Assembly (NCBI GenBank): GCA_018657385.1
Contig: JABHXF010000034.1
Span: forward strand, 8,081-72,080
Source: Candidatus Woesearchaeota archaeon
Lineage (GTDB): Archaea; Nanobdellota; Nanobdellia; Woesearchaeales; DSVV01
DNA length: 64,000 bases
Direction: 5' to 3'
Shown: positions 12,339 to 63,328 of the stretch, in pieces
How the letters are laid out: each line of letters begins with the position of its first letter
Numbering within the stretch: the stretch's first letter is position 1
The notes under the pieces: model-generated
What the model saw: only the letters and a program-made list of their open reading frames with translations
Told to the model about the DNA's origin: nothing
The model's database searches: none
Translations under genes and position numbers: made by a program

Positions 12339-12565
12339 TTTTTATCCCACTCTCCTTTAAACCAATCCCACCATTTTTGCTTGTCTTCTTTGCTAGATTT
12401 CGCCATTTGCTCCCTTAATGATTTGTGGGCTTCATCAGTAGAACTCATAATGTGTTGACCACCTTTTTCTCCAACTTCTTTATATGTTTCGCCTTCAAAT
12501 ATTTCGTCACAAGGACCGCCCATTTCTTTGCATGTGAATTTTTTCATTTTAAATACCTCCATCAT
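12335..12565 (-). CDS. DUF1059-family small metal-binding protein (paralog 2, tandem duplicate)
   Basis: MKKFTCKEMGGPCDEIFEGETYKEV... It overlaps paralog 1 by 4 nt. Confidence 0.5.
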   Translation of the reverse strand: MMEVFKMKKFTCKEMGGPCDEIFEGETYKEVGEKGGQHIMSSTDEAHKSLREQMAKSSKEDKQKWWDWFKGEWDKK

Positions 12566-27954: not shown

Positions 27955-27995
27955 TTCATAACTATTTTCAGATTATTGTGTTTAGACTATTATGT

Positions 27996-29567: not shown

Positions 29568-29614
29568 TTCAAATGTAACTCCCTTAAGGATTAAATGATA
29601 TTAACAGAGAGTAA

Positions 29615-37922: not shown

Positions 37923-37995
37923 TTGAAGAATTCCCTTAGACTTTTAAGAGAGATCATAAAAACCCAAATAGTTGATGATATAGGGTATCCAAAAA

Positions 37996-40737: not shown

Positions 40738-40768
40738 TTAGTAAAATCAATAAAAGAATTAAATTAAA

Positions 40769-41470
40769 ATGATACACAAATTCCTAAATCCTAAAAAATT
40801 CAGATATGAAAGAAAGTTTCTTGTAGAAGAACTTGGAAAGAAAGAAGCATTATTTGTTATTAAAGAAAATCCAGCAATGTTCTCAGAAATATTTCACGAG
40901 CGAAGAATAAACAATATTTATTTTGATTCAAGTAACATGGAAAGTTATCATGATAATGTAATGGGAAATAGTCAAAGAGTAAAAATAAGAATTAGATGGT
41001 ATAATGATTTATTTGGTCATATTAAAAAACCAGTTTTAGAAATCAAAATTAGAAATAATGAATTAGGCTCAAAACAATCATATCAATTAAAACCATTTAT
41101 TCTTGGAAACAATACATCAAAAGATTGGTTAATAAAAGAAGTTATTTGTAAGTCCAGTCTTCCAAGATGGTTAGTAGAACACATAAAATCTCTTAAATTT
41201 GCTTTGTTAAATAGTTATACAAGAAGATATTTTAGATCTGCTGATAAAAAATATAGAATAACAATAGATTATGATCTAAAATTTAATGAAATATTTCAGA
41301 ATAACAATAAATTTGTTAAAACAATCAACCATAAAGAGTATATAATATTAGAACTGAAATATGAAAGAGATGCCGATGAAGGTGCAGAGAATATTACTAA
41401 CAGTTTCCCATTTAGATTAACTAAGAGTTCAAAATTTGTATCAGGAATAGATTCTATTAGTGAAGCATAA
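40769..41470 (+). CDS. VTC-domain (CYTH-like triphosphate tunnel, polyphosphate-polymerase-type) protein
   Basis: RYERKFLVEE..., IYFDSSNMESYHD, RVKIRIRWYND and LEIKIRNN, the alternating basic beta-strand pattern of the VTC/CYTH family. Confidence 0.55.
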   Translation: MIHKFLNPKKFRYERKFLVEELGKKEALFVIKENPAMFSEIFHERRINNIYFDSSNMESYHDNVMGNSQRVKIRIRWYNDLFGHIKKPVLEIKIRNNELGSKQSYQLKPFILGNNTSKDWLIKEVICKSSLPRWLVEHIKSLKFALLNSYTRRYFRSADKKYRITIDYDLKFNEIFQNNNKFVKTINHKEYIILELKYERDADEGAENITNSFPFRLTKSSKFVSGIDSISEA

Positions 41471-42385: not shown

Positions 42386-43798
42386 ATGGTTAAATATGGT
42401 GCAAGATTAAATAAAGATGATTTAAGATATTTAAAAAATCGTTTAGATGAATTAAACCAAGATATATTAACATACAAAAACATAAATTTGGTAGAAAAGT
42501 GTGAATTAGAGTTAATTTATAGTAATCAATCTAAATTTTTAATTTCTAGTGCATTTAATAAATTAAAACATATAAGAATGAGTTTAAGATCAATTATTTC
42601 AAAACCAAAAAAAGGTAATCAAAATAAAATTTTATTTTTATTGTACACTAACAGCCATATTAACAATAGCAGATCTATAATAAATGAGTTAGGTGAAAAA
42701 GCATTGGTTGTAAAAAAAGATGGATTTACTAATCATGTTGCAAAAAAACTTAAAAGAAATAATATAGAATTTAATGATATTGAAGGATATGATAAATCTA
42801 AAAAAAACATATCAACAGCTGAAAAATCATTAGACAAAGCATATAATGAATTAGTAAAAGAAGATAAGATTGAAAAACCAATGCTAAAATATATGTTTAA
42901 ATCCTATTTCCCTGAGGTGATTAAATATATTGAATTAATAAACAACATGTTAGAATTTGAAAAACCAAAATTATTAGTTGTAATGAATGAAATTACAACA
43001 TTAGGAAACATAGCTGTTTCTATTGCAAAAGAAAAAAAGATTCAAACATTATGTATCCAACATGGAGCAATAGCAAATAATCCAGGTAGTTTTGTACCTG
43101 TTTCTGTTGATAAAGTAGCAGTTTGGGGAGAATATTCAAAAAAAGTAATGATGGAACATAATACACCTGAAGAAAAAATAGTTATAACAGGTGCCCCACA
43201 ATTTGATATATTAAAAGATTATAATAAGGGAATAACACCTAAAATTGCAAAAGAAATTGGTTTAGATATAACAAAAAAATATGTTTTAATTACAACACAA
43301 AATTATCCATTTATGGAAGATGTACTAAGATCAGTATGTAATACTGTAAAATTAATTCCAGAATTACAATTAGTAATTAAAACACATCCATCTGAGTATT
43401 TTGCTGATAAATATGTCAAAATTGCTCAAAAATCAGGAATTAAAAGCATAGTTACAAGTAAATACCTGTATCCTTTATTAAAAAGCTGTAGTGCAATGAT
43501 AACTGTTTCTTCAACTACTGGTATGGAAGCATTGATGATGAAAAAGCCAGTAATTACTGTTAATTATACTGGATCTGAAGATCCTATGCCCTATGCAGAA
43601 AATGGGGCAGCAATTGGTGTATATAAAGAAGAAGAATTGTTACCAGCTATAAAAGCAGTAATAAATAATGATGATAATAATGATAAAATAAATGAAATAA
43701 TTAAGAAATCTAAAAATTTCCTATATGATAGATGCCATGTAATTGATGGAAATGCATCTCAAAGAATTGTTGAATTAATCCACAAAATAAGTAATTAA
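42386..43798 (+). CDS. CDP-glycerol glycerophosphotransferase (TagB/TagF)-like polyol-phosphate transferase
   Basis: GT-B-like C-terminal half with KKYVLITTQNYPF, ...VIKTHPSEY... and ...SAMITVSSTTGMEALMMKKPVIT, which resemble the TagF motifs. This is a family-level call only. Confidence 0.4.
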   Translation: MVKYGARLNKDDLRYLKNRLDELNQDILTYKNINLVEKCELELIYSNQSKFLISSAFNKLKHIRMSLRSIISKPKKGNQNKILFLLYTNSHINNSRSIINELGEKALVVKKDGFTNHVAKKLKRNNIEFNDIEGYDKSKKNISTAEKSLDKAYNELVKEDKIEKPMLKYMFKSYFPEVIKYIELINNMLEFEKPKLLVVMNEITTLGNIAVSIAKEKKIQTLCIQHGAIANNPGSFVPVSVDKVAVWGEYSKKVMMEHNTPEEKIVITGAPQFDILKDYNKGITPKIAKEIGLDITKKYVLITTQNYPFMEDVLRSVCNTVKLIPELQLVIKTHPSEYFADKYVKIAQKSGIKSIVTSKYLYPLLKSCSAMITVSSTTGMEALMMKKPVITVNYTGSEDPMPYAENGAAIGVYKEEELLPAIKAVINNDDNNDKINEIIKKSKNFLYDRCHVIDGNASQRIVELIHKISN

Positions 43799-44701: not shown

Positions 44702-47401
<2,700 letters not shown>

Positions 47402-47460
47402 TTTGAAATTTAAAAAATTATTGAAAAAGAATAATAATAACAATAATAAACATACAAAAA

Positions 47461-49547
<2,087 letters not shown>

Positions 49548-49551
<4 letters not shown>

Positions 49552-51101
49552 TTATAGGTAAATCATGCATGTATATTAATTATAATAACAAAAAAACAAA
49601 AATGAAACAAGAACAAAGAAACAGATTATTAGAAGAAAGAAATAATTTAGATACTGATTTTGTTAGTGAAAAGAGTAAAATAATCAACATTAAAATTCTT
49701 GAGTTGAATGAGTTAAATAATGCCAGAAATATTGGAATATATTATCCTAAAGATTGTGAAGTTGATACTAAAGAATTAATTAAAAAGTTAATTGAAAATG
49801 GAAAAAATGTGTTTTTGCCAAAAGTTATAAAAAATAATGATAAAGACATAGATAATGATGAAATGGAATTCAAAGAAATAAAAAACTTTGAAGAACTTGT
49901 TTATGGAGAGTATGGTATAAAAGAACCTAGTGAAAATTCGAGAAAAATAAATGCTGAAGAAATAGATGTATTAATTATGCCTTGTGTTGGAGTTGACACA
50001 AAAGGCAATAGAATTGGTAGAGGAAAAGGGTATTATGACAAATATCTTGAAAGTGTAAGCAAAGCAAAGAAGATTTGTGTTGCATATGATTTTCAAATTA
50101 TAGATAATGAAATAGAAAAAGAAGCACATGATAAAAAAGTAGATATAATAATTACAGAAAGTAAAATAATTACAACTGATGAAATAATTAATTCAAACGC
50201 ATTTAAATTATTAGATGGAAAAAAGTTAGCAGATCAAATTAATGAAAAAGTTAAGCAAGAAATTAATTCATATTCTAATAAAGAATTAATAAAAGTTCCT
50301 AAGCTAGTTGCTATAATTGTAGGAGAAGATCCTGCATCAAAATTATATGTTAGAATAAAAGGAGAAAAATGTAAAGAAGTTGGAATTAATTTTGAAAAAT
50401 TGAGTTATTCTGAAGAGATGGATGAAAATGAATTAATAAATGAAATAGAAAAACTAAACAATGAAAAAGAAGTAACTGGAATAATGATACAATTGCCTTT
50501 ACCAAAACATCTAGACAAAGAAAAAATAATTAATAAAATTAGTGTTAAAAAAGATATTGATGGCCTTACTCAAGAAAACAGAATATTACTTTCTCAAGGA
50601 GATGAAAGCTTAGCATGCTGTGCCCCAAAAGGGATTATGAGGTTATTAGATGAAAATAATATTGAGCTTAAAGGAAAAAATATAGTTGTTCTAGGAAAAG
50701 GATATCTAGTTGGTTATCCATTTATATTAATGTTAAAAAATAGAAATCTTGATTTTACAGTATGTGATTGTAATACGCAAAACATACAAGAATTTACTAG
50801 AAAGGCAGATATATTAATAACAGCAACAGGAAATGCTCACTTAATTAAATCAAATGACATAAAAGAAGGTGTAGTGATTATTGATGCAGGATGTGCAAAA
50901 GTAGGAGGATGTGTTGTTGGAGATGTAGATTTTGAAGATGTGAAAAATAAATCATCTTACATAACACCTATAATTGGTGGTGTTGGACCTGTAACAGTTG
51001 CTATATTGATGGAAAACATATTAACTGCACATAAAAATTCATTCATAAGAGAAACAAAAGAAATCAATGAAACAAATCAGAGGAATGAAGAAGATGACTA
51101 A
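49548..51101 (+). CDS. fusion of 5-formyltetrahydrofolate cyclo-ligase (MTHFS) and bifunctional methylene-THF dehydrogenase/methenyl-THF cyclohydrolase (FolD)
   Basis: MTHFS part IDVLIMPCVGVDTKGNRIGRGKGYYDKYL. FolD part LVAIIVGEDPASKLYVRIKGEKCKEVGI...GIMIQLPLPKHLDKEKIINKISVKKDIDG...PIIGGVGPVTVAILMEN. It overlaps the upstream gene by 4 nt. Confidence 0.75.
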
Positions 51102-51801
51102 AAAGATAGTAATTTATGGATCTGGTGGATCAGGAAGAGAAGTTAAGATGTTTATTGATCAAATTAATGAACATTATAATAATGAAGATTACAAAAACAA
51201 TCAAAATAATGAAAATAAGAAGGTTTTTGAGATAATTGGATTTATTGATGATAATCCTGAAAAGAAAGGTACAATTGTAGTAGATAATCTAAAAATCATA
51301 GGAGATTTTAATTATTTATTAAATTATAATGATCAATTAAATGTAGTTATTGCAATAGGAGAGATGACAATTAGAAAAAGCATATTTGATAAGATAAAAC
51401 AAAATACAAAACTAAAGTTTCCAAATATAATTCATCCTAGTGTAATATATGAGAAAAAAACAAGCAACATAGGAAAAGGTAATATTATTTCATCTGGAGC
51501 TGTAATTAGCACTAATTTTTCATGTGGAGATTTTAATCATATTCATTTGAATGCAGCAATAGGACATGATTTTAGATGTGGAGACTATTGCAATTTGTTT
51601 CCTGGTATTAATATTGCTGGAATGGTTAAGATGCATGATTTTTGTGAAATTGGGTTAGGATCAAGCATTAGACAATGTATTGAAATTCCAACAAATGTCA
51701 GAGTTGCTGGCTGTTCATTCATAATGAGAAACCCAGAACCAAATTATAGTTATATTGGAGTACCAATTAGAAAATTTTTCAAACTTAAAGAAATCAAATA
51801 A
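51094..51801 (+). CDS. hexapeptide-repeat sugar N-/O-acetyltransferase (NeuD/PglD/PseH-like)
   Basis: N-terminal Rossmann-like IVIYGSGGSGREV and C-terminal left-handed beta-helix repeats. The start is likely ATG 51094 (MTKKIVIYG), overlapping the FolD stop by 8 nt. Confidence 0.65.
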   Translation: MTKKIVIYGSGGSGREVKMFIDQINEHYNNEDYKNNQNNENKKVFEIIGFIDDNPEKKGTIVVDNLKIIGDFNYLLNYNDQLNVVIAIGEMTIRKSIFDKIKQNTKLKFPNIIHPSVIYEKKTSNIGKGNIISSGAVISTNFSCGDFNHIHLNAAIGHDFRCGDYCNLFPGINIAGMVKMHDFCEIGLGSSIRQCIEIPTNVRVAGCSFIMRNPEPNYSYIGVPIRKFFKLKEIK

Positions 51802-51880
51802 TAATAATAATAATAATAATTTAAAAAAATTAAAAAAACAAGATGAATTAATAATATAATAACACAAATGAGGCAAAAAT

Positions 51881-52231
51881 ATGAACCTAGAAATTGGAAC
51901 TGATATAGAAGAAATAACAAGATTCAGAGAAAAGCCTTATGATAAGAATAAAGGATTTTATGAAAAAGTATTCACTGAAAATGAAATTTTATATTGTATG
52001 GAAAAAGCAGACCCATATCAACATTTTGCAGTGAGGTTTTGTGCTAAAGAAGCTGTAATAAAAGCATTACAAAATAAAAAGGTTTCATTTAATGAAATTG
52101 AAGTTATTAATGAAGATAATATTCCTAAAATTAAAATTAATTTAGAGAATTTTAATGAGATGGATATTAAAGTATCATTATCACATACAAAAAATTATGC
52201 TGTTGCATATGTTATTGTAGTTAAAAATTAA
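51881..52231 (+). CDS. acpS: holo-[acyl-carrier-protein] synthase (4'-phosphopantetheinyl transferase, AcpS type)
   Basis: IGTDIEEITRF...FTENEILYC...RFCAKEAVIKAL. Confidence 0.75.
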   Translation: MNLEIGTDIEEITRFREKPYDKNKGFYEKVFTENEILYCMEKADPYQHFAVRFCAKEAVIKALQNKKVSFNEIEVINEDNIPKIKINLENFNEMDIKVSLSHTKNYAVAYVIVVKN

Positions 52232-52246
52232 GAATAAGGTGAAAAA

Positions 52247-52498
52247 ATGAATGAAGAAGAAGTAAAAAACGAAATAACAAACATATTCAAAGAAACATTT
52301 CCAGAACTAAAAGAAAAAGAGCTTGAATTAGATAAACATCAGAATGATTTTGAAAACTGGGATTCATTTGCACATATGGAAATTGTTGGAAAAGTTGAAG
52401 AAAAATTTAAAGTTAGCTTAGAGATGGATGAAGTAATTAGCTTAGAAACACCACGAAAATTTATTGAAATTATTGTTAAGAAGACTAGTGGAAGTTAA
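52247..52498 (+). CDS. acyl carrier protein-like (83 aa)
   Basis: The phosphopantetheine-attachment Ser lies in NWDSFAHMEIV (DS motif). It is a helical acidic protein. An AAGGTG RBS is present. Confidence 0.6.
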   Translation: MNEEEVKNEITNIFKETFPELKEKELELDKHQNDFENWDSFAHMEIVGKVEEKFKVSLEMDEVISLETPRKFIEIIVKKTSGS

Positions 52499-52562
52499 TG
52501 ATTAGACAAAAGACCAGTAAAAATTAAAATTTATAATAAAACAAGCAGAGGAGGAAATAAAG

Positions 52563-54200
52563 ATGTCAACAATGTTTTCAATTGTAGAAAATAGCAGCAG
52601 AAAATATCCAAATAAGACAGCATTAGTCTATAAGGAAAACAAATATACTTATTCAGAACTAATGAAAAAAATAGATGTAGTTAGATCATTCTTTATCAAT
52701 AATACATCTAATCAAGATAAAGTGTTCTTATTAATGGAAAATTCAGATTCGTGGGTTATATCATATTTTGGTATTATGGGTGCAGGATGTATATGTGCTC
52801 CTCTTGGTGTAAGAACATCTGATTCTAACATCTTATTCCAACTTAAATTTGCACAACCAAAATATATTGTAATTTCAAGTAAGTTTAAAGACAAATGTGA
52901 AAGATTAGAGTTAGATAAAATTGCAAAAGTAATAGTTTATGATGAAATAATTGACAACCATGATAAAATTGATAACAGCAATGAAAATATAAGAAATAAT
53001 GAATCCAGTGTTCATAAAAGAGAAGTTGAATTAACAGAAGATAGTTATAATAGCTTAATTTATACATCAGGAACCAAAGGGATTCAAAAAGCAATCCTAC
53101 TTAAACATAAAATAGTGTATAATTCAACAAAAAACATAATAGATTACCTCAAAATTAGACATGATGATATTTATTATCAAATATTACCATTATCACATTC
53201 ATTTGGTCTTGGTAATGTTCATACCACATTATATATGGGTGGCACAGTTATAATTGCAGATAACACAATCAATTTAAAAAAAATAATTAATGAAATGGTT
53301 GAAAACAAAGTTACATTTTTTGCAGCTGTTCCATTAACACTTAAATTGATGGTTGAAAATTTCTTTGAAGATTTTAAAAGATTAGATGAACATTTAAGAA
53401 CAATTTGCACAAATACAGGACCAATGCCAACTGATATTACACATAGAATAATTACAGAAACCAAAAACATTCAATTTTATACATATTATGGGTTAACAGA
53501 AGCATCAAGATCATCTTTTATGTACTTTAATCTATATCCAGATAAATTAAAGTCAGTAGGGAAACCAACACCTAATGTAAATATTAAATTACTAAACCAT
53601 AATGGAGAGATAATAACAAAAGCTAATGAAGTTGGTGAAATATGTATTATTGGTAACCATACTGTAAAGGGTTATTGGAATAATGAAGAAGCAACAAATA
53701 AGTCATTTAAGCAAGGATGGTTACACACAGGCGATATGGGATACTTTGATAATGAAGGATTTTTGTTTGTAACTGGTAGAGATGATGATATTGTGAATAT
53801 GGGTGGAGAAAAGGTTTCATTACAAGAAATAGATAATGTAATTAGTAAATGCGCATTAGTAAAAGATGTAATGTGCCTAGAACAAAAAGATTATGAGAGA
53901 GAATTTGTAATTAATGCACATGTAGTTTTAGATGATGACAAATTAAATAATAATCAAGAAGAAAAATTAAGTGAAGAAGAGATCAAAAGAATCATATTAG
54001 AACATTGTAAACAAAGTTTAGACAATTTCAAAATACCTAATAAAATCCTGTATTGTGAAACACTACCTAGAACAGATTCTGGAAAAACTAAAAGAGCGTT
54101 TTTTAGAAATCAAATGAATAAGGAAAATGAAGAATTCAAAGATGAGGAAAGATTCAAAAAAAATGAAGTAATTAATAAAGGTGATATAAATGGAAAGTGA
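52563..54200 (+). CDS. AMP-dependent synthetase/ligase (acyl-ACP/CoA ligase)
   Basis: AMP-binding motif LIYTSGTKGIQKAILLKH. Also ...YGLTEA... and a C-terminal ...TDSGKTKR motif. Confidence 0.75.
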   Translation: MSTMFSIVENSSRKYPNKTALVYKENKYTYSELMKKIDVVRSFFINNTSNQDKVFLLMENSDSWVISYFGIMGAGCICAPLGVRTSDSNILFQLKFAQPKYIVISSKFKDKCERLELDKIAKVIVYDEIIDNHDKIDNSNENIRNNESSVHKREVELTEDSYNSLIYTSGTKGIQKAILLKHKIVYNSTKNIIDYLKIRHDDIYYQILPLSHSFGLGNVHTTLYMGGTVIIADNTINLKKIINEMVENKVTFFAAVPLTLKLMVENFFEDFKRLDEHLRTICTNTGPMPTDITHRIITETKNIQFYTYYGLTEASRSSFMYFNLYPDKLKSVGKPTPNVNIKLLNHNGEIITKANEVGEICIIGNHTVKGYWNNEEATNKSFKQGWLHTGDMGYFDNEGFLFVTGRDDDIVNMGGEKVSLQEIDNVISKCALVKDVMCLEQKDYEREFVINAHVVLDDDKLNNNQEEKLSEEEIKRIILEHCKQSLDNFKIPNKILYCETLPRTDSGKTKRAFFRNQMNKENEEFKDEERFKKNEVINKGDINGK

Positions 54201-55338
54201 ATCTGAAATGAATAATAAAGAAAATAGTCAAATTAATCTTATCAATGAAAATAATAGAATGTTTGGGTTTCTAAAAAAAGCATTCTTTCCAAAAACCATA
54301 ATATTTTCAAGTTTGAATAATTATCTAAAAACAATTGAAAATAAGAAATGTTTCTTAATATGCTCAAAATCATTTCTTGACAACAATCCAGACTGCACAA
54401 CTAATCTTGAAGTAGTAGACAAATATATTTTATCTGGAGAACCAAGTATTAATACATTAAAAGAATGCGTAGATAAAATCAATCAAATCACTGAGGAACT
54501 TTTCATTATAGGAATTGGTGGAGGATCAGTAGTTGATCTTGCAAAAGCGGTAAAAAAAGAATGTAATAAACAATTAATTGTAATTCCAACAACACCTGCA
54601 ACAGGTTCAGAAGTAACACCATTTTCAGTATTTGTTGACCAAGAAGAAGAAAAAAAAGAAGAAGAGAGAGAAAGAGAAAACAAGAAAACAATAATTAATA
54701 GTCAAAAATTGTTGCCAGATGTTGTAATCTTAGATCCATCATACCAAAAAACAATACCTAAAGAATTACATGGTTACATGGTTGGAGATATACTAGCCCA
54801 TAGTATTGAAGCTTTTTTATCAAAATTTTCTAATCCATTATCAGATGTTTTAGCATTACAATCAATTAAATTAATAGATCATACCTTAAGCATAGATGAT
54901 TATAATAAAAACATAGATAAATTTTGGGAAAAGATTCAAATAGCTGGATTATTAGCAGGACAAGCACAAGGCATGGCTGCAACAGGATTAGTACATTCAT
55001 TTGCTCATCAATTTGGAGCAAAATATAAAATACCACATAGTAAAGCAGTTACAATATTTCTAAAGGATGTGATTAAGCTTAATCTTGATAATTATGATGT
55101 AAATGAAAAAATGAGTAATTTAGGTTATTTAAAACCTGAAGATTTAATCTCAGTAATTGAAAAACATCAAAGATTATTTAATTTACAAAACGATAAAATG
55201 AGAATAAAGGTTAACAATGATTTTAATATGGAAGAATGTATTAATAAAATAAAAAGAGATGTTTGTTCAGCAACAAACCCATTTAGAGCAAATGATGAAC
55301 AAATTAAAGAAATAATTGAAAAACATATTGAAAATTAA
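54190..55338 (+). CDS. iron-containing (group III) alcohol dehydrogenase family oxidoreductase
   Basis: GIGGGSVVDLAKAV and ...PTTPATGSEVTPFSV..., the Fe-ADH nucleotide and metal-site motifs. It overlaps the upstream gene. Confidence 0.65.
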   Translation: MESESEMNNKENSQINLINENNRMFGFLKKAFFPKTIIFSSLNNYLKTIENKKCFLICSKSFLDNNPDCTTNLEVVDKYILSGEPSINTLKECVDKINQITEELFIIGIGGGSVVDLAKAVKKECNKQLIVIPTTPATGSEVTPFSVFVDQEEEKKEEERERENKKTIINSQKLLPDVVILDPSYQKTIPKELHGYMVGDILAHSIEAFLSKFSNPLSDVLALQSIKLIDHTLSIDDYNKNIDKFWEKIQIAGLLAGQAQGMAATGLVHSFAHQFGAKYKIPHSKAVTIFLKDVIKLNLDNYDVNEKMSNLGYLKPEDLISVIEKHQRLFNLQNDKMRIKVNNDFNMEECINKIKRDVCSATNPFRANDEQIKEIIEKHIEN

Positions 55339-55405
55339 AAAGAAATGAAAAAATAGAATAATTCAAAAGAAAAAATTGAAAATAAAAAGAGTGTAGATAA
55401 TAAAA

Positions 55406-56548
55406 ATGAAAGTTGATGAATTAATTGAAAAAGATGCATATTCAATGCCTTCAAGTGAAAAACAAACATTATTCCTTGAAGCAATGAAAGAATCAATTAG
55501 ATTTCACTATAATAATTGTAATGAATTTAAGAATTATTTAGATTACTTAAAATTTGATATTAATTCTGAATATAGCTTAGAAGACCTTCCTTATCTACCA
55601 ATACCAATTTTCAAAGAGATGGAATTAATAACAGGATCAAAAGAAGATATTAAAACAACTATTAACTCAAGTTCAACAACATCAAATAAACCAAGTAAAA
55701 TTCCTCTTGATAAAATTACAATGAAAAGACAACAAATTGCATTAAAAAATATTATGTCAAGTTACCTTGGGAAAGAAAGAAGAATATTTATTATATTTGA
55801 TAAAAAATCTACTATTGAAAATCGTGGTCAGAACACATCATCAAGAGCATCTGCAATCCTTGGTATGTTGCCTTTTGCAAAATCAATGAAATTTGTCCTT
55901 AATGATGATTTAGAGTTCGATATGGAGTTGTTTAAAGAAGCAATAGATTCAATAAGTAGTAGTAATAATGATGATAGAGAGAGTGGTGAAAAAATTAAAA
56001 TTTGTTTTTTCGGCTTTACATGGATAATATATAAAACATATTTATCAATAAGAAAAGATCTGAAAAAATTAGAGCAGTTTAGAATATTAATTAAGGAGTT
56101 ATCTAGGTTATCAAATGATAAAAAAGTTTTACATATTGGTGGTTGGAAAAAATTAAAAGAAATAGCTGTTGAAAAATCACAATTCAATAATGAAATAGGT
56201 ATGATTACTAATGTAGATATAAAAGAAATAATTGATTTTTATGGAATGACAGAACAACTTGGAACAGTTTATCCTGATTGTGAAGAAGGATATAAACATG
56301 CATCTTTATACTCAGAAATAATTATTAGAGACCAAAACACATTATTACCATTAGAAGTTGGAAAAGCAGGATTAATTCAATTGATAACACCTTTACCAAA
56401 TAGTTACCCTGGAATATCAATATTAACTGAAGATGTTGGAGAGTTAATAGGAATAGATAATTGTAAATGTGGACGAAAAGGCAAATATTTCATATTCAAG
56501 AAAAGGGTTGAAAAAGCACCAATTAAAGGATGTGGTGATACATTATGA
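55406..56548 (+). CDS. LuxE-like acyl-protein synthetase/acyl-adenylating family protein
   Basis: The N-terminal ...SMPSSEKQTLFLEAMKESIRFHYNNCNEFKNYL and the P-loop-like INSSSTTSNKPSKIPL are consistent with PF04443. This is a family-level call only. Confidence 0.45.
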   Translation: MKVDELIEKDAYSMPSSEKQTLFLEAMKESIRFHYNNCNEFKNYLDYLKFDINSEYSLEDLPYLPIPIFKEMELITGSKEDIKTTINSSSTTSNKPSKIPLDKITMKRQQIALKNIMSSYLGKERRIFIIFDKKSTIENRGQNTSSRASAILGMLPFAKSMKFVLNDDLEFDMELFKEAIDSISSSNNDDRESGEKIKICFFGFTWIIYKTYLSIRKDLKKLEQFRILIKELSRLSNDKKVLHIGGWKKLKEIAVEKSQFNNEIGMITNVDIKEIIDFYGMTEQLGTVYPDCEEGYKHASLYSEIIIRDQNTLLPLEVGKAGLIQLITPLPNSYPGISILTEDVGELIGIDNCKCGRKGKYFIFKKRVEKAPIKGCGDTL

Positions 56549-57894
56549 AAGTAATATTTAAGAATGGTAAGATATTAAATGAAACATTTGAAAAAGAGTC
56601 TAGTAGTCAAGAAATTAAAGATATAAATATGGTCATAGAAGAACTTAAATCAAAGAAAGAGTATATTCATTCATTAAAAATAGATTGGATTATTGAGTTT
56701 TTCAATGAAATTTCAAGATATTGGATAGGGAATAAAGAATTAGAAACTAAAGTTGGAACATTAAAGCATTTAGCAGATTTTTTTACAAAAGAAAATACAA
56801 CATCTATGCTGAATTTTGCATTACGTGGAGATTATAAAATATTAGATAACTTTATTGATTTAAACCAAATAAAATATGTATATCATTGTCAACCAAGAGG
56901 ATTAGTTGTTCAATGGCTTTCAGGAAATGTACCATTATTAGGTTTATATTCTATTTTTATGGCTATGTTAACTAAAAATGTATCTTTAATTAAAGCATCA
57001 AGTAAAGCATACAAAGAATTATTGATATTATTAGAATCATTAAATAATGTTAATACTGAATATATCAAAGGTTCAGAGTTCTTAGAAACAATTACAGTTG
57101 TTTTAGTAGATAATAATGATACAAAAACACATAATGAAATGTCATCATCAGCTGATGTTAGAGTTGCATGGGGTGGTCATGAAGCAATACAAACAATAAT
57201 TAACCTAAAAAAAGATGTTTTTTGTGAAGATATTGTGTTTGGACCAAAATATTCATATGGAGTTATTGATAAAGAAGCATTAGTTGATTATAAAAAAATA
57301 GCACAAAGATTAGCATTTGATATTTGTACATTTGATCAACAAGCATGTTCTTCTCCACATACAATATTTGTTGAGGAAAACAACCAGACCTCTGCTGTAG
57401 TATTTGCTGAAGAACTAGCAAAGAATATTGATTTTATCACTAAGAAAATGCTTCCAAAAGAAAATGAAGGTGCACAAAAAAAATTAGAAATATTAACACA
57501 AAGGGCAAAGTATAGTATGATGGAAGAGACAAGAGATATAAAAGACATAGAAAGTACAAAAGATTCAAAAGTATTTTCATCAGAAAATACAGATTGGACT
57601 GTAATATGCAGTAATGAAGAAGGTTTGTATAATGCATGCTTTTCAAGAGTAATTCATGTAAAACCAATAGATAACATTAGTAAACTAAAACAATATAATG
57701 ACAAAAAAAAGCAAACTTTAGGTATTGCCTTGAATAAACAAAATCGAAAAGAAATAATTAATGAGATTACATTAAATGGGATTGATAGATGCCCAAGATT
57801 CGGAGATATGACCTTATTTGAATCACCATGGGATGGAATGTTTCCAATAGATAGATTAGTAAGATGGGTAGCATTAAGCAAAAAAAGAGATTAA
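56545..57894 (+). CDS. LuxC-like acyl-CoA/acyl-protein reductase (aldehyde-dehydrogenase superfamily)
   Basis: YVYHCQPRGLVVQWLSGNVPLLGLYSIFMAMLTKNVSLIKASSKAY resembles the LuxC HWxAGNxP...LTKN pattern. It overlaps the upstream LuxE-like gene by 4 nt. Confidence 0.5.
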   Translation: MKVIFKNGKILNETFEKESSSQEIKDINMVIEELKSKKEYIHSLKIDWIIEFFNEISRYWIGNKELETKVGTLKHLADFFTKENTTSMLNFALRGDYKILDNFIDLNQIKYVYHCQPRGLVVQWLSGNVPLLGLYSIFMAMLTKNVSLIKASSKAYKELLILLESLNNVNTEYIKGSEFLETITVVLVDNNDTKTHNEMSSSADVRVAWGGHEAIQTIINLKKDVFCEDIVFGPKYSYGVIDKEALVDYKKIAQRLAFDICTFDQQACSSPHTIFVEENNQTSAVVFAEELAKNIDFITKKMLPKENEGAQKKLEILTQRAKYSMMEETRDIKDIESTKDSKVFSSENTDWTVICSNEEGLYNACFSRVIHVKPIDNISKLKQYNDKKKQTLGIALNKQNRKEIINEITLNGIDRCPRFGDMTLFESPWDGMFPIDRLVRWVALSKKRD

Positions 57895-58023
57895 ACTTTA
57901 TTCAAAAAGAAAAATAAGACAAAACAAAATTAAAAAACAAACAATAGATCAAATAAAATTCAATCATGAAAAAAATGAATTAGATCAAGAAAAAGAAACA
58001 TAAATTGAAGAGAGGGAAAAAAC

Positions 58024-59175
58024 ATGACAATTAAAGTACCATTATTTAAAACATTTTCAGATGAAAAAGACGTAGAAGCAGTTGCAAAAGTACTTAGAAG
58101 AAAAACTTATTGGGCAACAGGACCAGAAATACAAGAATTTGAAAATAAAATAGCTGAATTTGTTGGAAGAAAGTATGCATTAACATTTAATTCAGGAACA
58201 TCAGCTTTACATGCATTACTTCTTGCACATGATGTTAAAGATAAAGAAGTAATTGTACCTTCATTTACATTCATTGCAACCTCAAATGCAGTAATCCTAG
58301 CTGGTGGAAAACCAGTATTTGCAGAATCTGAACATGAAACATTTGGATTAGATGCTGAAGATGTTAGAAAAAGAATAACACCTAACACAAAAGCAATAAT
58401 GCAATTACATTATGGTGGATTCCCAGGAAAAGATACTGAAAAATTAAGAGAAATCGCTGATGAACATAATATTTTATTTATTGAAGATGCTGCTGAATCA
58501 CTTGGTTCAAGCATAAATGGAAAGATGATTGGAAACTTTGGCCATAGTTCAATGTTTAGCTTTTGCCAAAATAAAGTATTAGCAATTGGTGAAGGAGGAA
58601 TATTATTAACTGATGATGAAAAAGTTTTTGAAAAAGCAAAATTAATCAGATCTCATGGAAGAGTTGAATTAAATGAAGATTATTTTTCATCAACAAAAGA
58701 TAATGATTATATTGAAGCAGGATTTAATTATAGAATGCCAACAATTTGTGCAGCATTAGGATTATCACAATTTGATAAAATACAAGAAGTAATTAGTAGA
58801 AGAAGAGAAAAAGGCCAATATTTGAGTAAACATTTATCTCAAATTAAAGGCATTAGAATTCCTCTTGAATTCAAAGACCATTTTCAAGTATATCAAATGT
58901 ATTCAATATTACTCGAAAATGAAGCAACAAAAGATAAATTACAAGAATATTTAACAAAAAATGGTATAATGAACAAAGTCTATTTTTTACCTGTACATCT
59001 AAAAACATTATACAAAAGAAATTATGGATGTAAAGAAGGAGATTTACCCAAAACAGAACTATTATCTAGTAGAATATTAAATATTCCACTTTTCCCTGAT
59101 ATTAGTAAGGAAGATCTTGATTATATGATAAAAATAATAAAACAGTTTTTTGATAGTATAGATAGTATCAACTAA
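58024..59175 (+). CDS. DegT/DnrJ/EryC1/StrS-family PLP-dependent sugar aminotransferase (PseC/LegC/ArnB-like)
   Basis: ...ALTFNSGTSALHALLLA..., ...DAAESLGS... and ...FSFCQNKVLAIGEGG... (the PLP-Lys region). Confidence 0.8.
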   Translation: MTIKVPLFKTFSDEKDVEAVAKVLRRKTYWATGPEIQEFENKIAEFVGRKYALTFNSGTSALHALLLAHDVKDKEVIVPSFTFIATSNAVILAGGKPVFAESEHETFGLDAEDVRKRITPNTKAIMQLHYGGFPGKDTEKLREIADEHNILFIEDAAESLGSSINGKMIGNFGHSSMFSFCQNKVLAIGEGGILLTDDEKVFEKAKLIRSHGRVELNEDYFSSTKDNDYIEAGFNYRMPTICAALGLSQFDKIQEVISRRREKGQYLSKHLSQIKGIRIPLEFKDHFQVYQMYSILLENEATKDKLQEYLTKNGIMNKVYFLPVHLKTLYKRNYGCKEGDLPKTELLSSRILNIPLFPDISKEDLDYMIKIIKQFFDSIDSIN

Positions 59176-59188
59176 GAGAGCAAAAATA

Positions 59189-60898
59189 ATGAGTAAAATA
59201 AAGAACTTTTTTGAAAATTTAAAAATAGATGATTGTAATAGTTATCACCCTTATTTGTTTTTAGTATCTTTCATATTATTGCTTAGCTTTTTTAGAAATG
59301 ATATCCCCATATCAACCATATTTTATAGTGCATTAATTATGTTAGGACTCACATTTGCATTATATGGATCAATAGCTCTTGTATTAAAGATTATAATTAA
59401 AAAAAATGTAATAAATAAGGCTTCAATATTGACTACAACAATTTTATTTGTAGTATTTCCATTAAGTTTCCTGTTTTACTCATTGAGAAATACAAAAATA
59501 AATAGTTTTGTAGTAGGCAGCCCAATAAATCTATTAGTAATTTCATTAATCACGTTAGGATTAGTTGGATTATTTGTCCTATTAACTAAAAAAGATTTAA
59601 TTAAGCTGAATAAAAGATTAAATAAAATCTCAAATGTAGTTATTATATTAAGTTGGATTATATTCTTAATAATTATTATAACACAAAACATAGGTTTAGC
59701 AGACCAAGGAATTGAATCATTTGAGGATGAAATTGTAAAATTTGTTAATGACAAAATAACATATGAATCTGATGATATTGAAAGCAAAAATGATAATGAT
59801 AAAAAAGAAGAAGGGATTATAATTTATGAGGATATAAATACAGAGCTAGAAAAGTTACCCAATATTTATTATATATTATTAGATGGATACACAAGTTCAT
59901 ATAATCTTGATCAAATATATAATTATGATAATAGTGATTTCACAGATTACCTTACAGATAAAGGCTTTTACATTGCAAAAGAGAGTAATAGTAATTATGC
60001 AAATACATACTTATCTGTATCATCATCTACAAATATGCAGCATGTAACATTTTTAGGAAATATATTGGGAGAAGAAGCAAGTGGAAGAATCATTCCAAAT
60101 CACATGATTAAGAATAATAAAGTAATGAATTTCTTAAAAACAAAGGGATATAAAATTTATCATGATGTTGAACATGGTAATAAGAATACTAATGCAGATT
60201 ATCATGGTTGTGGTGCAAAATTTGATAGGTTTAAAGAATTATTTGAACCAACTATGATAGATATAATTGATAATAAGATTGGAACAATTAGAAGAATGAG
60301 ATATAAATGTTCATTCAATAAACTTAAATCAGCACATGATAAAGAAGGTCCCATATTTGTATTTGCACAAATAAAGCCACCACATCCAGTTTATGTATTT
60401 GATAAAGATGGCAATGCAGTATTAGCTAATATGGGTACAGAAGATTATATGTGGAAACAAAAAGATAATTATATTGAACAATTAATGTATGTAAACAAAG
60501 TCATGATTAAAATTATTGATAAAATATTAGCAGAATCAGAAACCCCACCAGTTATAATAATACAAGGAGATCATGGCACAGGTTCATCATTTGCTCAAAT
60601 TGATAGAGAAGATGGTGGAGGGTGGGAATATCCTGAAAATAAAACAATGTTAAAAGAAAGAATGGGAATATTAAATGCATATTATCTTCCTGAATTAAAA
60701 AATGTAGAAAAGTCCAGTGTGAATAATGAGATATTATACTCATCTATAACACCAGTTAATAGTTTTAGAATTGTGTTTAATCAATATTTTGACATGGAAT
60801 TAGAATTATTAGAAGATGATAGTTTTTATTCATCAAAAAGAACACCATATAGAATGGTTGATATAACTGATAAAGTTAAAATTGAAGGAGAGAATTAG
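59189..60898 (+). CDS. membrane-anchored sulfatase/alkaline-phosphatase-superfamily transferase (LtaS/EptA-like)
   Basis: An N-terminal domain of about 5 TM helices is followed by an extracytoplasmic domain with ...IYYILLDGYTSSYNL... and ...IIIQGDHGTGSS.... Confidence 0.5.
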   Translation: MSKIKNFFENLKIDDCNSYHPYLFLVSFILLLSFFRNDIPISTIFYSALIMLGLTFALYGSIALVLKIIIKKNVINKASILTTTILFVVFPLSFLFYSLRNTKINSFVVGSPINLLVISLITLGLVGLFVLLTKKDLIKLNKRLNKISNVVIILSWIIFLIIIITQNIGLADQGIESFEDEIVKFVNDKITYESDDIESKNDNDKKEEGIIIYEDINTELEKLPNIYYILLDGYTSSYNLDQIYNYDNSDFTDYLTDKGFYIAKESNSNYANTYLSVSSSTNMQHVTFLGNILGEEASGRIIPNHMIKNNKVMNFLKTKGYKIYHDVEHGNKNTNADYHGCGAKFDRFKELFEPTMIDIIDNKIGTIRRMRYKCSFNKLKSAHDKEGPIFVFAQIKPPHPVYVFDKDGNAVLANMGTEDYMWKQKDNYIEQLMYVNKVMIKIIDKILAESETPPVIIIQGDHGTGSSFAQIDREDGGGWEYPENKTMLKERMGILNAYYLPELKNVEKSSVNNEILYSSITPVNSFRIVFNQYFDMELELLEDDSFYSSKRTPYRMVDITDKVKIEGEN

Positions 60899-60967
60899 AT
60901 TTAAAGAGTATAAAAAATAGATTAAATATACAATTAAAATAATTAAAAGCTAGAGAGGTAAAATAAA

Positions 60968-61927
60968 ATGGTTACAGACGAAGATTTAAAAAAAGAAGCA
61001 GAAGCCTTTGATAAACAAACTGAAGAAAGAATTAAACAAGGTTTTATTCCTGATTTAAGAAGATTAAAGAAAGTTGAATGGTTTTACAATAATATGTGGA
61101 GAGATCCAGAATTTGTTAAAATCCACCTTATGCCTAAAGTAAATTATGTAATTAACATTGCAAAACAAAAAGGAGGCAAAGTTTTAGAACTAGGATGTGG
61201 TTATGGATATTTAACATTAGAATTAGCAAGAAATGGATTAGATGTTACAGGCATCGATCTATCTTCAAAAAGTATAGAAGTTGCAAAAAGGTTTGCAGAG
61301 GAAAATCCATTCAAAGAAAACTTTGGATCATTAAACTATGAATGTAATAATATTTTAGAAATGGAGTTTGGAGAAAACAAATTTGATACAATTGTATTTT
61401 TTGGAACATTACACCATCTTCCAGATATAGATAAAATATTATTAAAAGTTAATAAAGCATTAAAAGATGGAGGAAATTTAATTGTATGTGAGCCAATTAG
61501 AGAAAATCTAAAAAAAGAAGAAATCCAAATTGCCTCAATTCTAAAAGCAATTCTTCCAACATACATTCCTTATGAAGAAAAACTAGGTAAATTAGATAAC
61601 ACAGAAGAGTGGAATAAGTATGTTGATGAAGTTTACAAAGAATACACATACCAAGATGATCATGAACAATCACCATGTGATAATATCACATCATCAAAAG
61701 ATTTGATAGTTAATTCAATAAAAAACCAATTTGAAGTTAAAAATATTGAATTTTCTGATGCATTCTTGGATAAGATTATTGGAGGACTAAGAGGAGAAAA
61801 CAAATACTTAATAGCAAAATTCCTTAAATTCTTAGATGATGAAATGATCAAGAAAAACATGATGCAGCCAGGAGGGATAAGAATCCATGCTGTCAAACAA
61901 ATTAATGAATCAAACATAAGAGATTGA
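60968..61927 (+). CDS. class I SAM-dependent methyltransferase
   Basis: KVLELGCGYGYLTLELARNGLDVTGIDLS. Confidence 0.75.
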   Translation: MVTDEDLKKEAEAFDKQTEERIKQGFIPDLRRLKKVEWFYNNMWRDPEFVKIHLMPKVNYVINIAKQKGGKVLELGCGYGYLTLELARNGLDVTGIDLSSKSIEVAKRFAEENPFKENFGSLNYECNNILEMEFGENKFDTIVFFGTLHHLPDIDKILLKVNKALKDGGNLIVCEPIRENLKKEEIQIASILKAILPTYIPYEEKLGKLDNTEEWNKYVDEVYKEYTYQDDHEQSPCDNITSSKDLIVNSIKNQFEVKNIEFSDAFLDKIIGGLRGENKYLIAKFLKFLDDEMIKKNMMQPGGIRIHAVKQINESNIRD

Positions 61928-61939
61928 AAGAAATAAACT

Positions 61940-63328
61940 ATGAAGAGGGATAATATGAAAATCGACCAAATATTAGTTACAAACGATACAAGCATTAAAG
62001 AAACAATGAAAATTATTGATAGGGGTTCCATCAGAACTGCAATAGTAGTAGATGAATCTAAAAGATTAATTGGTGTAGTAACAGATGGTGACATCAGAAG
62101 AGGGATATTAAGTGGTATTGATATTAATGAACAAGTATCAAAAATAATGAATGATAACCCTTTTTTTGTAAAATCAAGCACATCAAAAGAAGAAATTATT
62201 ACTACGCTTAAAGAAAAAGGAATTCTTAATGCACCAGTTGTAGATGAAAACAAAAATGTAATAGATATAGTTTTGCTATCTGGTGGATCAGGCACATCTA
62301 ATTTTAATAAAAGTGAAAGATTAAATAAACATCTTGGTACAATTCTTGTAATTGGTGGCGCAGGTTATGTTGGTTCAATTTTAGTTAGGAAATTATTATC
62401 AAAAGGATATAGAGTAAATGTTCTTGATAAATTTTTATATGGTAAAGAATCACTTCAAGACATTAAAGAAAATCAAAAATTGAGAATTGTAGAAGGAGAT
62501 ACAAGACATATTGAAGACATTACTTCTGCAATAAGAGAAGCTGATGCAGTTGTTCATTTAGCAGAACTTGTAGGAGATCCTGCCTGCGCATTAGATACAA
62601 CAAAAACTACTGAAATTAATTGTCTTGCAACAAGAGCAATTGCATCTATTTGTAAACACTTTCAAATTAACAGATTAGTATATGCATCATCATGCAGTGT
62701 ATATGGTGCATCTGAAGGTGGTGCATTATTAACTGAAGAATCACCACTTACTCCTGTATCGTTATATGCTAAAATGAAAATAGCATCTGAAAAAGCATTA
62801 TTAGAAATGAGAGATGATAATTTCTTACCAACTATCTTAAGATTAGGTACTGTATTTGGTTTTTCATATAGACCTAGATTTGATTTAGTTGTAAATTTAC
62901 TTACAGCAAAAGCAATAAAGGAAGGTAAGATCACTATATTTGGTGGTGACCAATGGAGACCAAATGTACATGTTGAAGATGTTGCAGACACAATTGTTTC
63001 TGTACTTGAATCACCTATTGAAGATGTTGGTGGTAAAATATTTAATGTTGGTCATGAAGACAACAACCATACAATAAATAAAATTGGAGATTATGTCAAA
63101 GAATTAATTCCAAGTGCTGAAGTAGTAATTGAGGACAAGGAAGTTGATAAAAGAGATTATAAAGTTGATTTTACAAAAATAAGAGAAATATTAGGAGATA
63201 ACATTAAGAAAAATTTAGGAGATGGAATCAACGAAATTAGAGTAGCATTAGAACAAGATCAAGAATTAGATTATTGTGATAAAAAACATAGTAATATTAA
63301 ATTCTTAACAGAGAATAATCCAAATTAA
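61940..63328 (+). CDS. fusion of a CBS-domain pair with an NAD-dependent sugar-nucleotide epimerase/dehydratase (extended SDR)
   Basis: The first about 120 aa are CBS-like (IVTDGDIRRGIL...). The remainder has the Rossmann GTILVIGGAGYVGSILV and a catalytic YAKMK. Confidence 0.7.
   Translation: MKRDNMKIDQILVTNDTSIKETMKIIDRGSIRTAIVVDESKRLIGVVTDGDIRRGILSGIDINEQVSKIMNDNPFFVKSSTSKEEIITTLKEKGILNAPVVDENKNVIDIVLLSGGSGTSNFNKSERLNKHLGTILVIGGAGYVGSILVRKLLSKGYRVNVLDKFLYGKESLQDIKENQKLRIVEGDTRHIEDITSAIREADAVVHLAELVGDPACALDTTKTTEINCLATRAIASICKHFQINRLVYASSCSVYGASEGGALLTEESPLTPVSLYAKMKIASEKALLEMRDDNFLPTILRLGTVFGFSYRPRFDLVVNLLTAKAIKEGKITIFGGDQWRPNVHVEDVADTIVSVLESPIEDVGGKIFNVGHEDNNHTINKIGDYVKELIPSAEVVIEDKEVDKRDYKVDFTKIREILGDNIKKNLGDGINEIRVALEQDQELDYCDKKHSNIKFLTENNPN

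Follow-up and report, generated by a model that had tools for sequence, protein, structure and literature searches.

An intact acyl carrier protein cassette with its own phosphopantetheinyl transferase in a putative nonulosonate operon of a Woesearchaeon

A 64-kb stretch of contig JABHXF010000034.1 from a Candidatus Woesearchaeota archaeon (here, the window) encodes a cassette of six genes (51881-57894) for handling acyl groups: a phosphopantetheinyl transferase (PPTase) of the AcpS type, an acyl carrier protein (ACP), an adenylating ligase, an iron-containing alcohol dehydrogenase (Fe-ADH), and relatives of the bioluminescence proteins LuxE and LuxC. We conclude that the cassette is a real and intact variant of a known but uncharacterised cassette, to which AcpS has been added. 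What is new is the archaeal host, together with a PPTase that accompanies the cassette almost only where ACP machinery is reported (Archaea) or expected (candidate phyla radiation [CPR] bacteria) to be lacking. What the cassette makes is a matter of enzyme classes and gene neighborhood, and we think it probable that the six genes and an adjoining PglD-like transferase make and deliver a hydroxyacyl side chain to a nitrogen of a legionaminic-type nonulosonate. The best reading of positions 51067-59175 is a self-contained unit for an N-acyl side chain, set inside a larger operon (44702-63328) of a DPANN (Woesearchaeota) archaeon.

Six intact genes

An earlier sequence-only reading had described six co-oriented and partly overlapping genes. 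The open reading frames (ORFs) were found exactly where it had placed them, all on the plus strand, and all six annotations passed the score of a Pfam or NCBIfam family:

51881-52231, +, AcpS-type 4'-phosphopantetheinyl transferase; PF01648 68.6 bits (cut-off 25), TIGR00516 76.5 (cut-off 59.8)
52247-52498, +, dedicated ACP of 83 amino acids (aa); PF00550 22.2 bits against a cut-off of 20.8 (marginal)
52563-54200, +, AMP-ligase of the ANL superfamily; PF00501 221.7, PF13193 34.8
54190-55338, +, Fe-ADH; PF00465 81.8, PF25137 91.5
55406-56548, +, LuxE-type acyl-protein synthetase; PF04443 216.8 bits (cut-off 24.9)
56545-57894, +, LuxC-type acyl-thioester reductase; PF05893 287.2 bits (cut-off 21)

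The ligase and Fe-ADH genes overlap by 11 nt and the LuxE and LuxC genes by 4 nt, and the other gaps measure 15 to 67 nt. LuxE and LuxC were the two assignments on which the sequence-only reading had staked itself, and both lie far above their thresholds.

The first two proteins would form a carrier and its activator. AcpS would convert apo-ACP to holo-ACP, and its residues Asp8, Glu57, and Lys61 are conserved among 20 homologues; in AcpS enzymes, the Asp/Glu pair (Asp8 and Glu57) serves as magnesium ligands. The ACP reaches no NCBIfam ACP cut-off. It matches an iterated profile at E=8e-30, however marginal its Pfam score, and every one of 65 distinct cassette ACPs has Ser40 of its W-D-S motif, so the serine expected of a carrier protein is in place. 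The ligase reaches no NCBIfam equivalog cut-off; its motifs TSGTKGIQK, YGLTEASR, TGD, and GK are intact and conserved, and the solved structures closest to it are those of oxalate-CoA ligase, oxalyl-CoA synthetase, and MenE (o-succinylbenzoate-CoA ligase). The GGGS nucleotide motif and the D..H, H..H, and H metal motifs of the Fe-ADH align with those of solved Fe-ADHs.

The two Lux-like proteins retain the residues for covalent acyl transfer. The GGWK lysine loop of LuxE and its C-terminal Cys376 (KGC, GCGD) align with Lys238 and Cys364 of LuxE in structure 7xc6. Both are at least 90% conserved in 80 homologues, and the C-terminal cysteine is kept even where LuxE and LuxC are fused. LuxE is predicted to adenylate a carboxylate and then to acylate itself on the C-terminal cysteine. 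In LuxC, the PF05893 match spans residues 67 to 441 of 449, and Cys268 (FDQQACSSP) aligns with the acylated catalytic cysteine of Photobacterium phosphoreum LuxC (7xc6), the residue that the sequence-only reading had suggested checking. No variation at Cys268 was seen among 14 homologues, and its conservation among 83 is at least 90%; LuxC is predicted to reduce an acyl-cysteine intermediate to an aldehyde with NAD(P)H.

We rejected an artefact of assembly or annotation as the source of the cassette. An identical copy of LuxC occurs on at least 23 contigs from independent metagenome samples, and the neighboring genes are the same wherever flanks were returned. Therefore, the arrangement is not an assembly artefact.

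The surrounding operon and a proposed pathway

The cassette sits among fourteen tightly packed genes of one orientation (44702-63328, +). NeuB, NeuC, and CMP-transferase genes in this operon bear out the nonulosonate setting that the sequence-only reading had claimed, and the NeuD-like and DegT flanks that it had named were recovered as matches to PF17836 and PF01041. The operon includes the following genes:

51067-51801, +, left-handed beta-helix (LbH) N-acyltransferase of the PglD/NeuD family; PF17836 PglD_N 47.8 bits (cut-off 23.4)
58024-59175, +, sugar 4-aminotransferase of the DegT/PseC/LegC type; PF01041 351.6 bits
44702-47401, +, fusion of CMP-nonulosonate cytidylyltransferase, NeuB-type synthase (with SAF domain), and PIG-L de-N-acetylase; PF02348, PF03102 (292.5 bits), PF08666, PF02585
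47461-49551, +, fusion of formyltransferase and NeuC-type hydrolysing 2-epimerase; PF00551, PF02911, PF02350
49548-51101, +, fusion of 5-formyl-tetrahydrofolate (5-formyl-THF) cyclo-ligase and FolD; PF01812 151.6, PF00763 128.5, PF02882 172.1
61940-63328, +, CBS-domain protein with a sugar-nucleotide dehydratase/epimerase of the short-chain dehydrogenase/reductase (SDR) type; PF00571, PF01370 (155.9 bits)

The operon appears to serve a legionaminic-type 5,7-diamino nonulosonate. We base this assignment on the NeuB part of the first fusion, which passes TIGR03569 NeuB_NnaB (408 against 399.65) and fails PseI (274.7, under 340), on the NeuC part of the second, which passes TIGR03568 NeuC_NnaA (449.8 against 235.9), and on the presence of an aminotransferase and an N-acyltransferase. 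The LegB and LegC models, however, stay below cut-off. The DegT enzyme falls short of both subfamilies (TIGR03588 PseC, 283 against 423; TIGR04181 LegC family, 235 against 420), and the CBS-SDR protein is a weak candidate for the 4,6-dehydratase (LegB, 80 against 475; PseB, 35 against 408). We note that the first fusion is a single ORF of 899 aa (44702-47401) that joins the last two pathway steps and an N-deacetylase in one polypeptide.

The two genes that flank the cassette would supply the acceptor amine and the acyl transfer. The DegT aminotransferase would install the amine to be acylated. The PglD-like transferase scores 148.3 bits with TIGR03570 NeuD_NnaD, slightly under the cut-off of 160.8. 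Its best solved relatives, VioB, PerB, and PglD, are 4-amino-sugar N-acetyltransferases, and it gives weak LpxA/LpxD matches over the beta-helix. His167, presumably the catalytic base, aligns with the His-Asp of the PerB "VVDHD" segment and with the equivalent VioB position. The PIG-L, formyltransferase, and cyclo-ligase/FolD domains suggest that the locus also encodes N-formylation, and the cyclo-ligase/FolD fusion likely gives this archaeon of reduced genome its own source of 10-formyl-THF for making an N-formyl sugar. Downstream of the cassette, the order is the DegT aminotransferase, an orphan membrane protein, a methyltransferase, and the CBS-SDR protein. The orphan (59189-60898) is a multi-pass protein of 569 aa for which neither Pfam nor NCBIfam gave a match up to E=1, and a comparison of 88 loci turned up homologues on contigs of this organism alone.

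Enzyme classes and catalytic residues of the pathway that we propose come from the matches above; its substrates and the order of its steps we infer. AcpS would modify the 83-aa apo-ACP on Ser40 to give holo-ACP. LuxE would adenylate one carboxyl of a small dicarboxylic acid, for example L-malate or succinate, and the acid would be held as a thioester on LuxE Cys376, passed to LuxC Cys268, and reduced with NAD(P)H to a semialdehyde. The Fe-ADH would then turn the aldehyde into an omega-hydroxy acid such as 2,4-dihydroxybutanoate ("tetronate") or 4-hydroxybutanoate. The ANL ligase would adenylate the remaining carboxyl and load the hydroxy acid on holo-ACP, and the PglD-like transferase would move the hydroxyacyl group to the 4-amino group installed by DegT, which becomes N7 of the nonulosonate. 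Finally, the PIG-L deacetylase and the formyltransferase would swap the other N-acetyl group, at N5, for a formyl group, with the formyl donor coming from the cyclo-ligase/FolD fusion. The pathway is thus predicted to yield a 5-N-formyl-7-N-(hydroxyacyl) legionaminic-type acid. For a 5,7-diamino nonulosonate, the calculated residue masses are 362.133 with formyl and C4H6O3, 346.138 with formyl and 4-hydroxybutanoyl, and 376.148 with acetyl and C4H6O3.

This scheme would account for two adenylating enzymes in one cassette. Two carboxylate activators, a thioester reductase, an alcohol dehydrogenase, an ACP, and an N-acyltransferase fit a route from a dicarboxylate through a hydroxyacyl-ACP to a sugar amine. 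A dicarboxylate is favored because a monocarboxylic acid reduced to its alcohol keeps no carboxyl for the amide, and the nearest solved relatives of the ligase, which activate oxalate and o-succinylbenzoate, lend the scheme support. The PPTase that accompanies the cassette is a further sign that the ACP does work in its holo form. The sequence-only reading had proposed machinery for an unusual N-acyl group, with hydroxyacyl and acetimidoyl among its examples. The general idea stands and hydroxyacyl is the best guess, but an acetimidoyl product was rejected, as the window cluster has no amidotransferase or Asn-synthase-type gene.

Relatives of the cassette and rival explanations

The pairing of LuxC with LuxE outside bioluminescence is not rare, contrary to what the sequence-only reading had supposed. 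Relatives of LuxC fall into 2237 clusters at 50% identity (865 with E<1e-10), many of them LuxE-LuxC fusions of ~820 aa. Two narrow peptide patterns matched 167 species genomes, the LuxE/LuxC pair occurs on 69 plasmids, and Aeromonas and enterobacterial strains that carry it have been published. The order ACP, ligase, Fe-ADH, LuxE, LuxC is kept in most of 80 fetched genome loci. The bacteria with the cassette include Vibrio, Marinomonas, Magnetococcales, Planctomycetes, Acidobacteria, Firmicutes (Lachnospiraceae), Bacteroidetes (Bacteroidales), and CPR, and the archaea include DPANN, Thaumarchaeota, and Asgard. In one sub-type the Fe-ADH is missing or an SDR stands in its place; cassettes that lack Fe-ADH are found in Thaumarchaeota, Bacteroidales, and some Planctomycetes, with the ligase 2.6 kb upstream of LuxC. 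A blastn search of all complete Escherichia coli genomes with the Vibrio fusion gene gave no match, and a match on a Salmonella plasmid was set aside, as it has a different LuxE/AMP-binding/PaaK-like arrangement and no adjoining glycan genes.

The cassette keeps the company of sugar genes, namely NeuB, CMP-transferase, NeuC, DegT, deacetylases, formyltransferases, and glycosyltransferases. The family (>2000 clusters) lies in surface-glycan loci of pathogens (Vibrio, Aeromonas, Enterobacteriaceae), gut anaerobes, and several archaeal phyla. A PglD-like (LbH) transferase adjoins it in the window, on a Deinococcus plasmid, and in four further loci (L028, L082, L047, and L069). Elsewhere, a family of ~350 aa follows LuxC directly, in 11 loci from Vibrio, Lachnospiraceae, CPR bacteria, and Nanoarchaeota:

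L006, 11295-12332, ~350-aa family member
L036 (Vibrio fortis), 11275-12342, ~350-aa family member
L010, L011, L041, L062, L071, L072, L074, and L078, further members

One member has a marginal GNAT match (21.8 against 20.7 bits) and the Vibrio member has none; the family is a candidate for the cognate acyl-ACP transferase. In Promethearchaeum syntrophicum MK-D1 (L081, 4587-18336), the ACP, ligase, Fe-ADH, LuxE, and LuxC genes adjoin a GT4 phosphosugar transferase, and the surroundings also encode an Sfp-type PPTase, a DUF354 protein, a hexapeptide transferase, and a DegT aminotransferase, but no NeuB within 10 kb.

The closest precedent is found in Vibrio cholerae O1. There, VC0248-VC0252 (rfbK-O / wbeK-O) are assigned to synthesis of tetronate (2,4-dihydroxybutanoyl) for N-acylation of perosamine. 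The ligase is RfbL/WbeL (471 aa) and the ACP is RfbK, and genetics shows that the O1 antigen depends on wbeL. The pathway has been a sequence-based proposal since 1995 (Morona et al. 1995, Gene 166:19). We compared the V. cholerae genes by their literature description and used locus L036 of V. fortis as a sequence proxy. For the remaining genes, we take RfbM/WbeM to be the Fe-ADH and RfbN/WbeN to be LuxE/LuxC-like. In the search for RfbN itself, a cluster look-up of ten LuxE-LuxC fusions and a homology search with the V. fortis fusion returned only other Vibrio and Flavobacteria.

By description, the O1 set has the same content as the window (ACP, AMP-ligase, Fe-ADH, a LuxE/LuxC-like protein or proteins, and a transferase), which in the window is adjacent and co-oriented (51067-57894), and it likewise leads to N-acylation of a 4-amino-4,6-dideoxy sugar with a C4 hydroxy acid. 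The V. fortis proxy has an ACP, a 473-aa ligase, an Fe-ADH, and an 825-aa LuxE-LuxC fusion beside legionaminic-type genes, whereas the window has LuxE and LuxC as separate genes, and identity between the two is ~25-35%. Unlike the O1 set, the window adds AcpS, has an archaeal host, and has a legionaminic-type nonulosonate context instead of perosamine; the window ORFs scanned include no genes for GDP-mannose or perosamine, and the context is instead NeuB, NeuC, and CMP-transferase. The remark of the sequence-only reading that the pair is not functionally defined thus needs qualification, in that a V. cholerae pathway and wbeL genetics exist, but it is right in that no biochemistry was found.

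A second precedent is flagellin glycosylation. Islands in Aeromonas group II and in enterobacteria contain an ACP, a 3-oxoacyl-ACP reductase (an SDR), an AMP-synthetase, luxE, and luxC, set among pse genes. The set is conserved in 98 strains of Aeromonas and ~70-80 strains of enterobacteria, and the authors who described it suggest that the product is a "liposugar." As in the window, ACP, ligase, LuxE, and LuxC lie among nonulosonate genes. The islands differ in having the SDR where the window has Fe-ADH, in having no AcpS, and in a target that is bacterial flagellin modified through Maf; no flagellin or Maf match was found among the window ORFs scanned. The Deinococcus plasmid, at an exopolysaccharide locus, also has the SDR version of the cassette, followed by its PglD-like transferase. 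The flagellin glycan of Aeromonas piscicola AH-3 contains a pseudaminic acid (Pse) derivative of 376.14 Da and an unexplained moiety of 102 Da. Replacing one acetyl of a Pse5Ac7Ac residue (316.127) with C4H6O3 (102.032) gives 376.148, and both AH-3 masses are consistent with a dihydroxybutanoyl group from the SDR-version cassette of the island. We did not find this assignment of the 376- and 102-Da species in the literature examined. If the pathway proposed here is true, the liposugar guess of the flagellin literature would give way to a route that leads from a di-acid through an omega-hydroxyacyl-ACP to an N-acyl amino sugar, and the same hypothesis would assign both the 376-Da derivative and the 102-Da moiety.

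The bioluminescence enzymes themselves are more distant. The LuxC-LuxE pair of 7xc6 has the same two folds and the same covalent chemistry, and the GGWK and KGC motifs of LuxE and the DQQAC cysteine of LuxC are held in common. Scores against the lux orthologue models are low, however (LuxC, NF052251, 134.1 against 750; LuxE, NF052244, 77.3 against 550), and no luciferase or LuxD-type Pfam match was found among the window ORFs scanned. Judged by these scores, the window proteins are not orthologues of the bioluminescence enzymes, and a genuine lux system was rejected because the equivalog cut-offs fail and there is no luciferase. Moreover, the window LuxC aligns with P. phosphoreum LuxC only to residue 445 of 477, so that the C-terminal tail which lines the exit of the hydrophobic cleft in 7xc6 is not covered by the alignment. 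The missing tail is the one feature of the cleft that we state with confidence, and a residue-level reading of the LuxC substrate cleft was dropped. The substrate of the window LuxE and LuxC is likely a short polar di-acid rather than myristate.

Dedicated carriers and ACP-dependent sugar acylation are known elsewhere. LpxA and LpxD, which are left-handed beta-helix enzymes, take acyl-ACP donors to acylate sugars, and in butirosin synthesis (BtrI-BtrH) an unusual hydroxy/amino-acyl chain is assembled on an ACP of its own before transfer to an amino sugar. Neither is orthologous to the window genes, however; the Btr chemistry is different, and LpxA and LpxD use long 3-hydroxyacyl chains from type II fatty acid synthesis.

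Several observations weigh against the pathway that we propose. No sequence feature examined fixes the identity of the acid, and C4H6O3 is isobaric with O-methylglyceroyl and other groups. Enzymes of the PglD family normally use acetyl-CoA, and if the window transferase serves only for N7 acetylation, then the acyl-ACP transferase is unaccounted for in the window, which lacks the ~350-aa GNAT-like partner of the closest relative. Identity of the cassette to its bacterial counterparts is only 25-35%. The precedent is itself indirect, as the V. cholerae pathway rests on homology and on genetics for one gene, and a literature search found no assayed enzyme of this cassette type. Searches of the literature that tied 4-hydroxybutanoyl to nonulosonates, or LuxC/LuxE to tetronate, gave nothing usable. 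Finally, there is no NeuB within 10 kb in the Asgard and Thaumarchaeota cassette loci; the link is therefore to amino-sugar acylation in general and not strictly to nonulosonates. That the target in the window would be a nonulosonate rather than another amino sugar is drawn from the structure of the operon.

A rival idea is that the cassette acylates some other target (another amino sugar, a hydroxyl, or a protein) while the PglD-like enzyme carries out an ordinary acetyl-CoA-dependent LegH/PglD step. The typical acetyl-CoA dependence of the family and its top solved relatives, VioB, PerB, and PglD, would suit such a division, as would the Promethearchaeum and Nitrosopumilus cassettes, which stand with GT4, LbH, DegT, deacetylase, and formyltransferase genes and without NeuB within 10 kb. 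The acceptor in V. cholerae is perosamine, and the 102-Da moiety of Aeromonas is free-standing at the end of the glycan. In the window operon, however, only a single aminotransferase, a single candidate dehydratase, and a single soluble acyltransferase are interspersed among the NeuB, NeuC, and CMP-transferase genes, and PglD-like transferases adjoin the cassette in several unrelated loci. We consider a separate target unlikely. 

The liposugar itself is quite unlikely in our view. It would have the ligase and ACP capture a long-chain acid, which LuxE, LuxC, and the alcohol dehydrogenase reduce to a fatty aldehyde or alcohol as a lipid substituent of the glycan. The authors of the Aeromonas and of the Enterobacteriaceae studies both proposed it, LuxC and LuxE share homology with the lux fatty-acid reductase, and the best NCBIfam match of the ligase is a subfamily of long-chain fatty-acid-CoA ligases, albeit at 311 against a cut-off of 476. 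An alcohol, however, offers the adjacent N-acyltransferase no carboxyl from which to form an amide, no enzyme that forms alkyl or ether bonds is present, and a monocarboxylic acid needs no second adenylating enzyme. Most archaea are reported to be without ACP-based fatty-acid synthesis, CPR bacteria are expected to be so as well, and the literature product of the V. cholerae gene set is a C4 hydroxy acid, not a lipid. The LuxC segment that the alignment misses, which holds the cleft-exit residues I472, L478, and F483, is weak evidence in the same direction. Alternatively, the aldehyde might be a branch point at which the LuxC product is transaminated or condensed, to an omega-amino-acyl or another group, with an auxiliary or oxidative Fe-ADH. 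Many cassettes lack Fe-ADH (those of Thaumarchaeota, Bacteroidales, and some Planctomycetes), and a DegT-type aminotransferase is often near. We find this very unlikely for the window, where the Fe-ADH gene overlaps that of the ligase by its 11 nt with metal and NAD motifs intact, and where the single DegT is already needed for the 4-amino group of the sugar; moreover, versions without Fe-ADH often have an SDR in its place (Aeromonas, the Deinococcus plasmid). We favor hydroxyacylation of the nonulosonate, and as Promethearchaeum syntrophicum MK-D1, Vibrio (V. fortis and V. vulnificus among them), Marinomonas polaris, and Clostridium pascui are cultured carriers, the hypothesis is directly testable.

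The phosphopantetheinyl transferase and the archaeal host

That AcpS is the lineage-specific part of the cassette and that the host is an archaeon had both escaped the sequence-only reading. Of 14 archaeal loci, 13 have a PPTase no more than 5 kb from LuxC, the enzyme of Promethearchaeum being Sfp-type. A PPTase is also present in the four CPR loci that have the DPANN-like type of LuxC and full flanks, and in three contigs of metagenome-assembled genomes labelled Chloroflexi, Pseudomonadales, and Gammaproteobacteria. At the same distance, it is absent from ~55 other bacterial loci, including one Saccharibacteria locus with the other type of LuxC. A neighbor-joining tree of LuxC, which carries no support values, places DPANN, CPR, and Thaumarchaeota in one clade and Asgard separately, and 19 of the 22 loci of the DPANN/CPR/Thaumarchaeota clade carry the PPTase.

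Why a sugar cassette carries a PPTase may lie in its hosts. Most archaea are reported to be without ACP and ACP synthase, and without ACP-based fatty-acid synthesis, and the few cases are attributed to bacterial transfer. CPR bacteria are likewise expected to lack ACP-based fatty-acid synthesis. Where a host has no activating enzyme, the cassette thus seems to supply one itself. A carrier-protein pathway that arrives in ACP-poor lineages with its own activating enzyme is an example of the inter-domain transfer of a complete functional unit.

Perhaps the consequence reaches further. We tentatively raise the possibility, itself open to considerable doubt, that the cassette and its PPTase form a self-sufficient and mobile "glycan side-chain factory" that moved among CPR, DPANN, and Thaumarchaeota, was assembled independently in Asgard with an Sfp-type enzyme, explains some of the "stray" ACP and ACP-synthase genes of archaea, and yields an undescribed 5-N-formyl-7-N-(dihydroxy- or hydroxy-butanoyl) legionaminic-type acid on the surface of the Woesearchaeon. 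If true, a surface 5-N-formyl-7-N-(hydroxy)butanoyl acid would be possibly relevant to the attachment of episymbionts to their hosts.

The window has a G+C content of ~27%, and Rfam and tRNA scans of it gave no matches. NCBI assigns the exact LuxC sequence to a Candidatus Woesearchaeota archaeon. Archaeal markers in the window are ribosomal protein eL43/L37ae, a type II methionine aminopeptidase, and a class I (archaeal-type) lysyl-tRNA synthetase. The eL43/L37ae match (9987-10502, -) spans approximately the first 84 residues of an ORF of 171 aa, which has either a long C-terminal extension or a mis-set boundary. The same window carries bacterial-type genes for a full-length RelA/SpoT, a triosephosphate isomerase, and histidine kinases. 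The RelA/SpoT protein (14029-15927, -) has HD, synthetase, TGS, and ACT domains and scores 694 bits with TIGR00691; its presence on a contig with the three archaeal markers suggests that a DPANN archaeon carries a stringent-response enzyme of bacterial type. A response regulator is adjoined by two sensor histidine kinases (25579-30628, -), one of which has three GAF domains and the other HAMP and PAS domains, and this signalling set is unusually rich for a fragment of a DPANN genome.

Other genes lie upstream of the operon. Just upstream of the glycan genes, three neighboring genes (37248-41470) encode a DUF4956 protein, a CotH-kinase-like protein of 913 aa, and a VTC-domain protein. The glycan region of the window also encodes a B12-binding radical-SAM enzyme (34719-36158), and a similar enzyme is found in a Nitrosopumilus locus (L024, 13075-14511), where it lies ~3 kb away from the cassette and next to genes for a formyltransferase and a PIG-L deacetylase. 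Finally, a protein of 470 aa (42386-43798) has sub-threshold matches to the BFO_1060-family glycosyltransferase and to TIGR04396 "surface carbohydrate biosynthesis," and it is a candidate for the nonulosonate transferase of the locus.

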